A stretch of 9,209 nt of DNA, taken from positions 1 through 9,209 of the forward strand of contig JAEOSI010000076.1 in NCBI GenBank assembly GCA_016840425.1. The letters run 5' to 3'. The DNA is from Candidatus Wukongarchaeum yapensis (GTDB lineage Archaea > Asgardarchaeota > Wukongarchaeia > Wukongarchaeales > Wukongarchaeaceae). The notes below the pieces were generated by a model that searched no databases, was not told where the DNA came from, and was given only the letters and a program-made list of their open reading frames with translations. Positions 618-6,909 of this stretch are shown one piece after another. Each line of letters starts with the position of its first letter. The first letter of the stretch is position 1. The position numbers were made by a program, and so were the translations under genes.

Positions 618-1574
618 TTAAGTAGAAGGTATATAACCCTCAGGGAGCTTACTACCAGAACAACGATACAACAAGAAAGCAAAAGCAAAAACCATAGTAA
701 TAACCGTCAAAACAGGCACCCAAAACTCTATCAATCTAATTTTTGACCTAACACTTTTTACATCTTCAACCCCTTTTGCTACAGAACTAGAAACCTCTGA
801 AAAAGTGATTTCTCCAACAACAATAGCATAACCAGGATCCGCAAAATAAGTTACAGTCTTTTCTAAAAAGTTTACAATAAGGCCACTTAAAGGCTCAAGC
901 AAAAAATTTACACTGACATCAACATATACCCCTAAACTATCGGTGCAATCCTTCTGAACATTACCCTGATATTCATATACAGTCAACCCTTCTAACTCTT
1001 TAGCGTCAGTGAAATCCAGCTTAGACGTAATGTTTACATCGTCCACAAAAACGTTTTCTATATCGTTACCTTCGCTTTGATGTGAAGGAAAGAGTAAGGA
1101 ATAACCAGTCCTTGAACGATCAGCAAGAGGACTTTCGACATTATGAGGATTATTCAAATCTCTTTTAACCACATGAGTGGTGTTATCCCACATAGTACAA
1201 TTAATACCAGTATAAGGCGTAGGAGACAAAGTTAGATAGGAAAAAGTCTCATTCCAATACCACTCACTCTTTACGTCTTGCTGCACCACCACAAAATCAT
1301 CATCGCTTTCTGTTACATAGACATGACGTTCAAACTCTGCAGGACCAGAAGCAAAGAACCACGTGGAAACATCAGAAGCGTTTGCAAAAGGGTGTTCACG
1401 AATTAGAAGGTTAATATTACCCTCATATTCGCGTTCAATGTCTACTTTTGCAAGCATTTTGTTTTCTAAATTATCGACAACACCATATTTCCAAAGCGGA
1501 AGAAAAATCCCCAGAGAAATTAAAGCAAACAAAAGTAAGAGGTTAAGCTTGTCTCTTTTAAACTTAAAAACCAT
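618..1574 (-). CDS. Membrane-anchored surface protein, DUF3068/'PorA' family-like (possible CD36/SR-B superfamily relative)
   Basis: 318 aa. It has an N-terminal hydrophobic segment (LLLLFALISLGIFLPLW), a C-terminal one (FWVPVLTVITMVFAFAFLLY) and a beta-rich acidic domain between them. The motifs RTGYSLLFP, EGLTVYEY, LEPLSGLIVN and SVAKGVEDVKSVRSKIRLI fit the DUF3068 pattern from memory. There are five N-x-S/T sequons (NAS, NET, NCT, NTT, NIT). An SD-like GAGGGTGA lies 6 nt before the ATG. Confidence 0.75.
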   Translation of the reverse strand: MVFKFKRDKLNLLLLFALISLGIFLPLWKYGVVDNLENKMLAKVDIEREYEGNINLLIREHPFANASDVSTWFFASGPAEFERHVYVTESDDDFVVVQQDVKSEWYWNETFSYLTLSPTPYTGINCTMWDNTTHVVKRDLNNPHNVESPLADRSRTGYSLLFPSHQSEGNDIENVFVDDVNITSKLDFTDAKELEGLTVYEYQGNVQKDCTDSLGVYVDVSVNFLLEPLSGLIVNFLEKTVTYFADPGYAIVVGEITFSEVSSSVAKGVEDVKSVRSKIRLIEFWVPVLTVITMVFAFAFLLYRCSGSKLPEGYIPST

Positions 1575-1593: not shown

Positions 1594-1784
1594 TATCCTT
1601 GTTCTACTATCTATGACGAAGAAAATCTTTTAAGCACCCTTAAAATTCACCACGAAAAAAAGAAAATCAGCTCTAAAGAGTAGAAGATATGAAAGAATTA
1701 AAAAGATTAGTTTCACAATACGGTGAAATTCAAAAACTTCAAAGGAAACTTGGATTAAAAATTAATACTCTATCCCCTTTCTAG
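1594..1784 (+). pseudogene. Possible frameshifted gene relic or 31-aa small ORF (1689-1784), unassigned
   Basis: Frame 1 reads ...IYDEENLLSTLKIHHEKKKISSKE* (TAG 1681-1683). Frame 3 continues VEDMKELKRLVSQYGEIQKLQRKLGLKINTLSPF*. Restoring one G in gagtagaa (to gag gta gaa) joins them into one protein-like amphipathic helical peptide. I recognise no family. Confidence 0.3.
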
Positions 1785-2313
1785 CTTCAATACCCTTACC
1801 AAAGGGATGCTTAACCTCCACCATAAACGTGACTAAATCTGCCCTATCAATAAACTCTGGAGGAGCACGACGCCCGACTAAAACAACAGTTGTTTCTTCG
1901 GGAATATTCTCTAAGAGGTTCAGCACTTCATCAATTTTTATAAGCCCAACAGCTACAGCAAGGTTTATCTCGTCTAAAATCAACAAATAAGGTTTACGGT
2001 TTAAAGCTTCTTTAGCAAAAGCTAAACCTTTCTTAGCTAACTCAAAATCTACAGGTTCAGGTTTTTCTAAATTGACAAAATCTTCGCGACCAAACTGATG
2101 CAATTCAAATTCAGGACTTAAACGTCCTCTTATTTTATATTCACCAATAAAAGTTCGCCCTTTCATAAACTGAACCAGTATAACTTTATATCCATGACCA
2201 AGAGCCCTTAAAGCAAGACCAAGGGCGGCAAGAGTCTTACCTTGACCACATCCTGTATAAAGGATTATAGAAGTTTTCTTACCTTTATCTTTTCCAACTT
2301 TTTTTTGACTCAT
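1762..2313 (-). CDS. cobA: ATP:cob(I)alamin adenosyltransferase, CobA/CobO/BtuR type, with divergent motifs
   Basis: 183 aa from the ATG at 2313 (MSQKK...). The track's extra 31 N-terminal residues overlap nrdJ and are unlikely to be real. Motifs: ILYTGxGxGKT.AALGLALRA.GHG, VILVQFMKG, LLILDEIN.A, GR.AP, ADLVT.M...KHPF..GI.A.KGIEY. Confidence 0.92.
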   Translation of the reverse strand: MSQKKVGKDKGKKTSIILYTGCGQGKTLAALGLALRALGHGYKVILVQFMKGRTFIGEYKIRGRLSPEFELHQFGREDFVNLEKPEPVDFELAKKGLAFAKEALNRKPYLLILDEINLAVAVGLIKIDEVLNLLENIPEETTVVLVGRRAPPEFIDRADLVTFMVEVKHPFGKGIEARKGIEY

Positions 2314-2330
2314 ACAAAACACAACATGAT

Positions 2331-2338
2331 CTTTTAAA
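2331..2338 (-). promoter_or_regulatory. Possible TATA box (TTTAAAAG) for a leaderless cobA transcript
   Basis: It lies in the 43-nt nrdJ-cobA gap, about 18-25 nt upstream of the ATG at 2313. There is no SD, and a T-rich run (TTTTTCTTCTTT) follows the nrdJ stop. Confidence 0.35.
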
Positions 2339-2356
2339 CAATAAAGAAGAAAAATT

Positions 2357-4462
2357 CTAATATATGCATTCGCCTGTAGGACACCCTCCAGAGTATTCTT
2401 CACCAACGCTTACATATTCTAAGGTTTTTCCTTCCTTTTTACCCCCTATAGTAAGTACTTGTTCTTTCTTGCTCCCATAACGATAAACTGTAATCCCTTT
2501 ACATTTTAATTTATAAGCTAAGAGATATGCTTTTTTAACATCTTCAAAAATGGCATCATGAGGGAGATTTATAGTTTTTGATACCGCATTGTCGACATAT
2601 TTTTGAAAAGAAGCTTGCATTTTTATATGCCACTCTGGAGCAATATCTAATGAAGTAACAAAAAGCCTACGTACATCTGGAGGGATCTCTTCCATATCTT
2701 GAACAGAGCCTTTTTTTGCGATTTTAGTCATTAATTCTGAACTGTAAAAACCACGTTCTTTCGCTATTTTTTCAAAAAAAGGATTAACTTCAACCAATCT
2801 ACTTCCACCCAAAACATTACGAACAAAAGAAACAGAAAACAAAGGTTCAATACCACTCGAACAACCAGCAATTATGCTTATAGTGCCCGTTGGAGCAATA
2901 GTTGTCAAGGTGGAATTTCTAATTTTATCAAAACCTTGTTTATCCCAAATACTACCCTTAAAATTTTGAAAGGAATCCCGTACCTCAGCAATTTCCACAG
3001 ACATTTTAACAGCTTCATCCTCTATGAAACTCATAATTTTTTCAGCAAGTTTAAGGGCTTCTTCAGAATCGTAAGGAATGCCCAGTTGAATGAGCATATC
3101 AGCAAAACCCATAATACCAAGACCGATCTTTCGATTAGCTTTAACCATTTCCTTAATTTCAGACAAAGGAAATTTACTGGCATCAATTACGTTATCCAAA
3201 AAATGTACAGCTTTTCGAACAGTTTTCCTGAGATTTTCCCAATCGATAGCGTTTTCGCCCTTTTTTATCATTTTAGACAGATTAATCGAACCTAAATTAC
3301 ACGCTTCATAAAAGAGAAGGGGAACCTCACCGCAGGGATTAGTACTTTCTATCACCCCTACATTAGGGGTGGGATTATGCCGGTTTATCTCATCTATAAA
3401 AACAAGTCCAGGATCACCACTACTCCACGCACTATTAATAATTAAATCGAAAACATTTCGTGCACGAACTTTAGTAGTTTGTTTATTAGTCCGAGGGTTA
3501 ATAAAGTAATACTCTTCGTCATTTTCAACAGCGCGCATAAAAGCGTCAGTAACTGCTACAGAAATGTTAAAATTTTCCAAAAATCCTTCTTTTTGTTTTG
3601 AAGTGATAAATTCCAGTATATCAGGGTGGTCATACCTTAAAATACCCATGTTAGCTCCCCTACGTTTACCTCCTTGCTTTATCACATCTGTAGTCACATT
3701 GTAAATACGCATAAAAGAAACAGGTCCAGAAGCAACACCCATAGTAGATTTTACTAAATCTCCCCGTGGTCTAAGATTTGAAAAGGAAAATCCAGTACCA
3801 CCACCGGATTGGTGAATAAGCGCCATATGTTTCAAAGTTTCAAAGATACTTTCAAGGGAGTCAAATACAGGCAATACAAAACACGCAGCCAATTGACTAA
3901 GATCAGTACCAGCGTTCATTAAAGTGGGAGAATTAGGGACAAACTCTAAATTTGCCATCATTTCATAGAACTTTTCTTCAAGATCGTCGACATTAACTTC
4001 TTTATCATAAATTAAATCGATTGAGGCTATCGCCTTCGCAACTCTTCTAAACATTTGAGCAGGAGTTTCAACCACATGCCCCTTTTCATCCTTTAAAAGA
4101 TAACGTTTTTCAAGCACTCTAATTGCATTAAGAGTTAACTTTAAATCATCTCTAACCCCGAAAAATGTTTTAGCCTCCCTTAATTCTGTGCGCTTTTGAC
4201 GATACAAAATATATGCTTTAGCCACTCTAGTAAAATCTTCGTTTATTAGAACATCTTCGACAATATCTTGCACATTTTCAACGCTTGGAGTGTCTTCGAC
4301 AAATCGCTCTTTAACAATTTTAACAACCTTATTAGCCAGAGATTTTGCAACCTCAGAATCCCTCTCCCCAACGGCAACGATAGCCTTATGAATAGCATTA
4401 ACAATTTTTTCAGAATCAAAATTTACGATACGTCCATCCCTTTTACGAATTTTAGAAATCAT
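2357..4462 (-). CDS. nrdJ: Class II (adenosylcobalamin-dependent) ribonucleotide reductase with N-terminal ATP-cone
   Basis: 701 aa from the ATG at 4462, with SD AGGGGTG 7 nt upstream; the TTG at 4468 is too close to the SD. ATP-cone: IRKRDGRIVNFDSEKIVNAI...VAKAYILYR. Catalytic core: PNSPTLMNAG, QLAACFV, GGGTG, QGGKRRGANM, GDPG, TNPCGE...ACNLGSINL, RKIGLGIMG, TIAPTGTIS, SSGIEP, VSKTIN, KGITVYR. C-terminal Cys pair CPTGEC. There is no class Ia YY dyad and no nrdB in the window, and the neighbouring gene is a B12 adenosyltransferase. Confidence 0.93.
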   Translation of the reverse strand: MISKIRKRDGRIVNFDSEKIVNAIHKAIVAVGERDSEVAKSLANKVVKIVKERFVEDTPSVENVQDIVEDVLINEDFTRVAKAYILYRQKRTELREAKTFFGVRDDLKLTLNAIRVLEKRYLLKDEKGHVVETPAQMFRRVAKAIASIDLIYDKEVNVDDLEEKFYEMMANLEFVPNSPTLMNAGTDLSQLAACFVLPVFDSLESIFETLKHMALIHQSGGGTGFSFSNLRPRGDLVKSTMGVASGPVSFMRIYNVTTDVIKQGGKRRGANMGILRYDHPDILEFITSKQKEGFLENFNISVAVTDAFMRAVENDEEYYFINPRTNKQTTKVRARNVFDLIINSAWSSGDPGLVFIDEINRHNPTPNVGVIESTNPCGEVPLLFYEACNLGSINLSKMIKKGENAIDWENLRKTVRKAVHFLDNVIDASKFPLSEIKEMVKANRKIGLGIMGFADMLIQLGIPYDSEEALKLAEKIMSFIEDEAVKMSVEIAEVRDSFQNFKGSIWDKQGFDKIRNSTLTTIAPTGTISIIAGCSSGIEPLFSVSFVRNVLGGSRLVEVNPFFEKIAKERGFYSSELMTKIAKKGSVQDMEEIPPDVRRLFVTSLDIAPEWHIKMQASFQKYVDNAVSKTINLPHDAIFEDVKKAYLLAYKLKCKGITVYRYGSKKEQVLTIGGKKEGKTLEYVSVGEEYSGGCPTGECIY

Positions 4463-4469
4463 AAACAAG

Positions 4470-4476
4470 CACCCCT
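4470..4476 (-). promoter_or_regulatory. Shine-Dalgarno AGGGGTG of nrdJ
   Basis: Reverse complement of cacccct, with a 7-nt spacer to the ATG at 4462. Confidence 0.75.
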
Positions 4477-4496
4477 AGCAAAAACAAAAAAACTAA

Positions 4497-4515
4497 AATC
4501 CCTTAATAAGGGATT
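4497..4515. promoter_or_regulatory. 19-bp palindrome AATCCCTTA-A-TAAGGGATT, candidate transcription-factor operator
   Basis: Perfect 9-bp arms with a 1-nt centre, in the nrdJ/ALDH divergent intergenic region. Confidence 0.6.
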
Positions 4516-4533
4516 CGGATCAAAAAAACACAG

Positions 4534-4541
4534 TTTATAAA
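4534..4541. promoter_or_regulatory. Self-complementary TATA box TTTATAAA, potentially serving both nrdJ and the ALDH gene
   Basis: It matches the archaeal TTTAWA[A/T] consensus on both strands and sits in the 126-bp divergent gap, upstream of both SD-led starts. Confidence 0.55.
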
Positions 4542-4588
4542 ATAGTAGAAACCTATAAAAAACCACAAAAAAGTAGGGGATTTAAAAA

Positions 4589-6273: not shown

Positions 6274-6909
6274 CTAACTTCTTTTCAAATAGCTCAACAC
6301 CTCTTCCTCCGATAGATCCCACCAACGCTTATAAAAACTAGCAACAGCAAAAGGAAAATACTTTTGGACAACTAAACAAATTACGACATCAACATAAGGC
6401 TTTAAAAGATTAATAGAAGATTCAGGAGAGCAAGGGATAGCAACAACTTTCTTCGCTGGAGCATACTTTTCAATAGACTTTGCCGCAGCTAACATAGTAA
6501 AACCACTTGCTAAACCATCATCAACAAGAATGACAACCTTCCCCTTAAGCTCTGGAAAGGGTTTATCACCCCGATAAATTTTAGACCTCCGCCTGATCTC
6601 TTTCAAAACCTCATCTGCAATAGATCGAATATCCTCCTTGCTCAAACCAAGACAAGCTACAAAAGACTCATTTAAAATCAAAGCACCATCCATAGTAATT
6701 GCGCCGAAACCGGCCTCAGTATTCCAAGGAATAGGGAGTTTACGGACCACTAAAACATCAAAAGGCGCGTTAAGCCGTTTAGCAACATGATAACCAACAG
6801 GAACTCCTCCATGAGGTAAAGCTAAAACAATAACATCTTCCCCCAAATATTTCTCAGCAACTGTTTCAGCTAAAACCTTGCCTGCATCGTCTCTATCCTC
6901 AAAAAACAA
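6274..6909 (-). CDS. Type I phosphoribosyltransferase family protein (stand-alone, substrate unknown)
   Basis: 211 aa. Motifs: F.DR.DAG..LA, VLALP.GGVPVG, DVLVVRKL..P.N.EAGFGAI, the PRPP-binding VILVDDGLASGFTM, and FAVASFY....DLSEEEV. The TTG start has GGGGGT 6 nt upstream. Confidence 0.92.
   Translation of the reverse strand: MFFEDRDDAGKVLAETVAEKYLGEDVIVLALPHGGVPVGYHVAKRLNAPFDVLVVRKLPIPWNTEAGFGAITMDGALILNESFVACLGLSKEDIRSIADEVLKEIRRRSKIYRGDKPFPELKGKVVILVDDGLASGFTMLAAAKSIEKYAPAKKVVAIPCSPESSINLLKPYVDVVICLVVQKYFPFAVASFYKRWWDLSEEEVLSYLKRS

Follow-up and report, generated by a model that had tools for sequence, protein, structure and literature searches.

A Conserved nrdJ-cobA Gene Pair Probably Couples Adenosylcobalamin Synthesis to a Class II Ribonucleotide Reductase in Asgard and Other Archaea

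The nrdJ-cobA Locus

The stretch of DNA analyzed here (hereafter the window; 9,209 nucleotides) is the entire contig JAEOSI010000076.1 (C53) of a 2.16-Mb metagenome-assembled genome (MAG; G000), 92% complete, of Candidatus Wukongarchaeum yapensis, a member of the Asgardarchaeota. It contains nrdJ, encoding a class II ribonucleotide reductase (RNR), directly followed by cobA, encoding a CobA-type cobalamin adenosyltransferase; coordinates are given in Table 1. An initial annotation of the window had described the two genes as a module of cofactor supply, co-directional and 43 nt apart, with a T-tract and a TATA-like box in the gap and no other cobalamin synthesis or transport gene nearby. These particulars hold: both genes are on the minus strand with exactly that spacing, the spacer has a run of five T residues (T5) at 2350–2354 and an A/T-rich TATA-like box, TTTAAAAG, at 2331–2338, and a Pfam scan of the window genes revealed no further cobalamin gene. 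An Rfam search at E values up to 1 returned no riboswitch or other RNA in the window.

The predicted NrdJ comprises an N-terminal ATP-cone (about 4184–4453) together with the Pfam domains Ribonuc_red_lgN (all-alpha) and Ribonuc_red_lgC (barrel), and passes the equivalog models TIGR02504 (NrdJ_Z; 763.5 bits against a cut-off of 399.95) and NF006417 (1007.8 against 961). It matches the NrdJ of Thermotoga maritima (1xjk/1xje) with 430 bits, and the motifs AACFV, STNPCGE, and EACNLGS, in which the redox pair and the radical cysteine lie, align to that enzyme; the radical cysteine is flanked by Asn and Glu (NPCGE), and the two redox-active cysteines are kept. Membership of this family suggests that the enzyme depends on adenosylcobalamin (AdoCbl) and works without an R2 subunit. 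The open reading frame (ORF) as listed extends from a TTG codon (2357–4468; stop TAG at 2359–2357), but translation more probably begins at the ATG at 4462, which is kept in the sister genome (G001).

CobA matches PF02572 along model positions 2–172 of 172 (184.3 bits; cut-off 25.7). Its Walker A motif (G21–T27, GxxxxGK[ST]), L113-D114-E115, R36 (equivalent to Arg51 of the Salmonella enterica enzyme), and C-terminal GIEY183 are present and invariant across 12 CobAs. An AlphaFold2 model (predicted local distance difference test score 84.5) has as its top PDB matches 1G64, 4HUT, and 1G5R (E value 2e-13, template modeling score 0.79–0.85). With these proteins, S. enterica CobA and Escherichia coli BtuR, it shares the fold, the Walker A Lys/Thr, Arg51, LDE, and a GIDY-like end. 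Against S. enterica CobA, to which it is about 32% identical, it differs in having Gln for Lys39, Cys for Asn37, and Leu for Thr43, an archaeal FGRxxF in place of the FTW (Phe91/Trp93) segment, and a much shorter N-terminal region.

Table 1. The nrdJ-cobA Pair and Associated Features of the Window
Feature	Position	Strand	Description	Basis
nrdJ	2357-4462	-	Class II (adenosylcobalamin-dependent) ribonucleotide reductase, 701 aa, ATG start	Pfam, NCBIfam, motifs
nrdJ-cobA spacer	2314-2356	-	43 nt	Read from sequence
cobA	1762-2313	-	CobA-type adenosyltransferase, 183 aa; ATG 2313-2311, stop TAA 1764-1762	PF02572
CobA P-loop GCGQGKT	2233-2253	-	Within cobA
Shared upstream region	4463-4588	-	Between nrdJ and divergent aldehyde dehydrogenase gene	Read from sequence
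Two T5 runs	1757-1761, 1732-1736 (region 1732-1761)	-	Directly 3' of cobA stop	Read from sequence

Conservation of the Gene Pair

The initial annotation had made its proposal depend on conservation of the adjacency, and the adjacency is indeed conserved, in relatives and in further archaea. Among 41 genomes of the same phylum, 20 encode a bona fide NrdJ, and in eight of these cobA follows it immediately on the same strand. Across a sample of 300 Asgard genomes, all seven CobAs at least 57% identical to that of the window, from three families, follow nrdJ; none of the next 23 does so. A metagenome set provided 80 contigs with CobA relatives 55–73% identical, and nrdJ is linked in 44 of the 72 members of the CobA clade described below that have informative flanks, counting metagenome contigs and other loci together. 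Three layouts occur among these: nrdJ-cobA (37 loci), cobA-nrdR-nrdJ (four), and nrdJ-x-cobA, with one gene between (three). In a second archaeal phylum, to which a Bathyarchaeia-like MAG belongs and from which 201 genomes were sampled, nrdJ lies upstream in 20 of the 30 best loci, and among distant 50%-cluster representatives with a non-Lys P-loop, five of the seven informative ones adjoin or lie near an RNR gene.

Spacing is tight. Measured between the nrdJ stop and the Tyr codon of the CobA P-loop, the median is 34 nt (38 non-redundant loci), which means that nrdJ and cobA either overlap (−4 or −13 nt) or sit at most 15 nt apart. The earlier caution that the two genes may be transcribed separately thus finds no echo in the relatives, whose spacing leaves no room for a separate promoter. 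The 43-nt spacer of the window and the sister genome is at the long end of the range among relatives, and neither the T5 run nor the TATA-like box in it is kept in the sister genome. In a small-genome family, probably Odinarchaeia (four genomes of 1.3–1.4 Mb, one of them closed), the gap is 0 nt.

ORF clustering identified nrdJ as the only recurrent B12-related neighbor of this CobA clade; the other recurrent neighbors are nrdR, aldolase-like and aldehyde:ferredoxin oxidoreductase-like genes, and a 166-aa ORF. No cob or btu gene was found within about 4 kb of the clade's CobA loci.

Several of the surveyed loci have features of their own. The middle gene of cobA-nrdR-nrdJ encodes 156 aa with an NrdR zinc-ribbon N-terminus, and the gaps in this operon are 0–4 nt (L116:4007-7300; also L110, L114, and L117, all metagenome contigs). 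In the small-genome family, the nrdJ stop abuts the cobA start at L003:5361-8033 and L008:5174-8944; CobA there is very diverged, with TGR changed to TGG and VKHP to IHHH, and the NrdJ ORF of L008 is 1080 aa, suggesting an intein. Asgard NrdJ genes are often split into several profile matches in ORFs of 1000–2560 aa (e.g., G004, G025, G013, G033, and G040), a pattern consistent with one to several inteins. At L179:1-2440, nrdJ-cobA is followed by ferredoxin, DUF1858, glutaredoxin, and NifU genes, whose products could be electron donors for both enzymes. At L020:2909-4985 (G304:C23), the NrdJ upstream of cobA is matched in two frames that overlap around residues 191–200, reflecting either a frameshift or an assembly error.

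A CobA Clade Marked by Its P-Loop

A quick IQ-TREE analysis of 126 CobA sequences places the window's CobA inside a clade of 86 sequences (Shimodaira-Hasegawa-like approximate likelihood ratio test support 100%), which also includes the CobA of Methanosarcina barkeri; the CobA of the small-genome family is a very long branch outside it. The whole clade lacks the first of the two Lys residues in the canonical GxGKGKT P-loop (Lys39 in S. enterica), having E, D, Q, A, or G instead. Its P-loop is GxGEGKT-like, and that of the window, GCGQGKT, has Gln24 at the Lys39 position. The basal branches are all linked to nrdJ, and two derived subclades, one Bathyarchaeia-like (GEGKS) and one comprising Methanosarcina, are unlinked. 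By its sequence, the window's CobA is best described as belonging to a diverged clade of the CobA family.

M. barkeri CobA is 64% identical to that of the window and has a GxGEGKT-type P-loop and a short N-terminus; it is the single CobA of its genome and stands alone, about 3 Mb from nrdJ. Another Methanosarcina member of the clade, M. mazei CobA (MM3138), is reportedly an active adenosyltransferase, with preferences for nucleotides and corrinoids said to be unlike those of the Salmonella enzyme. By analogy with it, the window's CobA would be active as well, and the P-loop change would be a signature of the clade and not a mark of lost function.

Two CobA Types and Their User Enzymes

Members of the same phylum also encode a second type of CobA, with the canonical GKGKT P-loop (K-type). 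It adjoins genes for methylmalonyl-CoA mutase (MCM) and/or MeaB in 29 of 36 distinct loci; Pfam confirmed an mcmA-mcmB-meaB-cobA operon in G047 (C183; L141:6611-10267) and, in G075 (C17; L140:6623-10415), a fusion of MeaB and K-type CobA into one protein of 434 aa. None of the loci of the nrdJ-associated type has an MCM or MeaB gene beside it. The analogy that the initial annotation had drawn with the adenosyltransferase partners of B12 mutases holds good in this phylum.

Genomes with both user enzymes (G017, G047, and G075) have both CobA types, and the mutase-less genomes G000, G001, G003 (closed, 1.4 Mb), and G303 have only the nrdJ-associated one. The notion of one transferase for one user holds in the former three and not in G000, which has a single CobA. 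An exception to the pattern is G007, whose K-type CobA is flanked by flavin-reductase-like genes and in which no mutase was detected. It belongs to a Jordarchaeales genus (L005:4779-7681 in G007, L007, and L142) whose K-type CobA has an N-terminal extension of about 70 aa and sits between flavin-reductase-like and NADPH:FMN-reductase-like genes; these neighbors could be corrinoid reductases.

Cobalamin Genes Elsewhere in the Genome

Contig C69 of the same MAG holds a cob cluster encoding CbiG, two corrin methylases, CbiC, CbiD, a CobD-type aminotransferase, CbiA, and CbiZ, as well as BtuF/C/D, CobN, a ChlI/D-like chelatase subunit, and CbiB; CobS is encoded on contig C84. The organism is probably able both to make and to salvage cobamides. 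The window's cobA is the sole PF02572 match in the genome, and no PduO-type adenosyltransferase was found. Because no other adenosyltransferase was detected, CobA is probably also the adenosyltransferase of the cobamide pathway. On the side of demand, no MCM was found in G000, and roughly ten matches to B12-binding domains are sized like corrinoid methyl-carrier proteins and B12-radical-SAM enzymes, so far as their length is a guide. NrdJ looks like the only AdoCbl-dependent enzyme of this genome, which also encodes a class III RNR, NrdD, on contig C141.

Part of the original proposal has to be given up here. With a full cob cluster on C69 and CobS on C84, the pair is not self-contained in this genome, and reliance on salvaged corrinoids is unnecessary. 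For other pair-bearing genomes, the idea of a salvage module stands: CbiC is missing from several, CobS too from most of those, and the closed 1.4-Mb relative was found to have no CbiC, CobS, or MCM. Judged by gene content, the pair would in such genomes be a minimal unit for the activation of imported B12 on behalf of the RNR.

Control Regions and Remaining Genes of the Window

The region shared by nrdJ and the divergent aldehyde dehydrogenase gene is about 86% identical between the window and the sister genome, in which the TATA-like box upstream of nrdJ (ATTTTATAAA, 4534–4543) is intact. A 21-bp palindrome (GAATCCCTTATTAAGGGATTT, minus strand), partly conserved in the sister genome, lies at 4496–4516 between this box and the nrdJ start and could be an operator or a hairpin in the 5' untranslated region. 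It was listed as a terminator-like stem in a scan for bacterial-type promoters and terminators, which is uninformative for an archaeon, and it was rejected as a regulon operator, having no close copy elsewhere in the genome. At the other end of the pair, the two T5 runs after the cobA stop have the appearance of an archaeal oligo-T termination site and are likely to function as one.

A different palindrome, the 22-bp ATAGGnnGGnTAACCnnCCTAT, is a candidate operator of a B12 regulon: its copies in this genome, on C69 at 12659, 18937, 19129, and 19779 and at C192:1735, precede B12 uptake and chelatase genes. A search allowing up to five mismatches did not find it in the nrdJ-cobA window, so that cobA appears to be wired to nrdJ, and regulated with it, rather than to the B12 regulon.

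The remaining window genes encode, according to Pfam, ribosomal protein S7, a PorA-like membrane protein, an aldehyde dehydrogenase, a phosphoribosyltransferase, a GNAT acetyltransferase, Pelota, and an HTH-CBS protein. The roles of two of these are unclear: the 318-aa membrane protein with the PorA (PF11271) domain (618–1574, minus strand) and the 211-aa phosphoribosyltransferase-domain protein (6274–6909, minus strand), which is without a close NCBIfam equivalog.

Discussion

The gene identities, the intact motifs, the conserved tight linkage, and the structure of the CobA clade are direct observations. The explanation that we favor, with a probability of roughly 0.75, is that of a two-gene operon, nrdJ followed by cobA, through which synthesis of the adenosylated cofactor is coupled to expression of its user, with CobA doubling as a pathway enzyme. 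We infer that the genes are co-transcribed in this genome, from the conserved promoter region in front of nrdJ. NrdJ would need AdoCbl for thiyl radical generation, and CobA, if enzymatically active as predicted, would form it from cob(I)alamin and ATP. Co-expression would tie AdoCbl production to the principal user of the cofactor, which in this genome is apparently the sole AdoCbl-dependent enzyme, and CobA may also regenerate the coenzyme by re-adenosylating cob(II)alamin left by abortive turnovers. The same CobA would supply the de novo and salvage cobamide pathway encoded on another contig, serving two purposes and not NrdJ exclusively.

Some observations weigh against an operon of this kind. 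The 43-nt gap, with its T5 run and A/T-rich box, may let some transcripts terminate there or a leaderless one begin inside it. If the two genes are transcribed separately in this genus, as is possible, the functional logic is unchanged. G002, from the closest other family of the order, is without the pair and has a K-type cobA with MCM/MeaB. In large subclades (Bathyarchaeia-like and Methanosarcina) nrdJ is elsewhere in the genome, and the linkage is therefore dispensable. CobA itself falls below the NCBIfam equivalog cut-offs (TIGR00708, 148.8 against 167.75; NF004637, 168.8 against 185).

That cobA is a housekeeping gene, the pathway adenosyltransferase with a promoter of its own in the gap and nrdJ as an incidental neighbor, strikes us as improbable. 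It would account for the finding of a single adenosyltransferase gene alongside a full cob cluster, and for the T5 run and TATA-like box. Against it, nrdJ and cobA are linked repeatedly across phyla, in three layouts and mostly at most 15 nt apart, the sister genome does not share the gap elements, and the cob cluster neither includes cobA nor shares its operator with it. We give still less credence to the idea that the changed P-loop (Gln at the Lys39 equivalent, Leu at the Thr43 equivalent) signals a changed activity, with another nucleotide donor or a non-catalytic role in binding corrinoid or ATP. The substitution is clade-wide, and the subthreshold equivalog scores could be taken in the same sense; yet the protein retains Walker A GxxxxGKT, LDE, Arg36 (which corresponds to Arg51), and GIEY at its C-terminus, the predicted fold matches CobA, and the Methanosarcina enzyme of the clade is reportedly active.

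The coupling that we favor might also go further than co-expression. CobA could dock on NrdJ, hand over AdoCbl, and re-load the enzyme after cofactor damage, much as a PduO-type transferase and MeaB serve the mutase. The clean split of CobA types by user enzyme within one phylum (K-type with MCM/MeaB, including fusions; the other with nrdJ only) speaks for such dedicated delivery, as do the overlapping or abutting frames, which suggest stoichiometric co-production, and the retention of the pair by B12 auxotrophs. We nevertheless think it unlikely, given how many members of the clade are not linked to nrdJ, among them those of the one lineage studied biochemically, and given that CobA in this genome probably has to act on pathway intermediates too. 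A weak search among longer homologues gave only MeaB-CobA and glycosyltransferase-CobA fusions and none of NrdJ with CobA. The NrdJ and CobA distance matrices correlate moderately (r = 0.48), as shared ancestry alone can explain; this mirror-tree correlation, significant in a Mantel test (0 of 999), was for that reason left unused as evidence of interaction. An extension of the delivery idea to archaea in general, which we offer as a speculation with the odds against it, would recognize two parallel client-specific AdoCbl lines: K-type CobA with MeaB for the mutase, and the Methanosarcina-type enzyme, without Lys39, as the ancestral partner of class II RNR, loading and repairing NrdJ by direct hand-off.

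The favored logic, in which an AdoCbl enzyme is encoded with its own adenosyltransferase, is also that of the MCM-MeaB-adenosyltransferase systems, from which the nrdJ pair differs in having no G-protein chaperone gene beside nrdJ. In humans the delivery partners of MCM are MMAB and MMAA. We know of no instance in which hand-off of the cofactor to a class II RNR has been shown, and class II RNR is, to our knowledge, alone among the major AdoCbl enzymes in having no described cofactor-loading or repair partner.

Clustering of a class II RNR gene with an adenosyltransferase gene is already published: in the nrdJ-cbrS-cbrT-pduO cluster of Lactobacillus delbrueckii, the transferase has been read as supplying AdoCbl for NrdJ (Rodionov et al. 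2009; Santos et al. 2018, PMC5997447). The likeness to the window lies in the class II RNR gene standing beside a cobalamin adenosyltransferase gene. The L. delbrueckii transferase is of the unrelated PduO type, the cluster includes a B12 energy-coupling factor (ECF) transporter, and the organism is a B12 auxotroph, whereas the window has a CobA-type transferase and no transporter in the operon, and its host can probably make B12. The split of the CobA clades is a modest new comparative observation; no description of the archaeal nrdJ-cobA pair, or of two clades with two clients, was found in the limited literature collection searched.

Taken by itself, the window shows nothing out of the ordinary, a sensible operon of two known enzymes, and the pairing of a user with its cofactor activator is real but unsurprising. 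The operon occurs widely among archaea, and even B12 auxotrophs with small genomes retain it. For annotation, the pairing helps to predict which archaea rely on AdoCbl for DNA synthesis, and the P-loop signature separates two functionally different contexts of CobA. The nrdJ-cobA operon also offers a simple system for asking whether an RNR receives its coenzyme by direct transfer. If direct hand-off were true, the Methanosarcina-type CobA would be the first cofactor chaperone for a ribonucleotide reductase.

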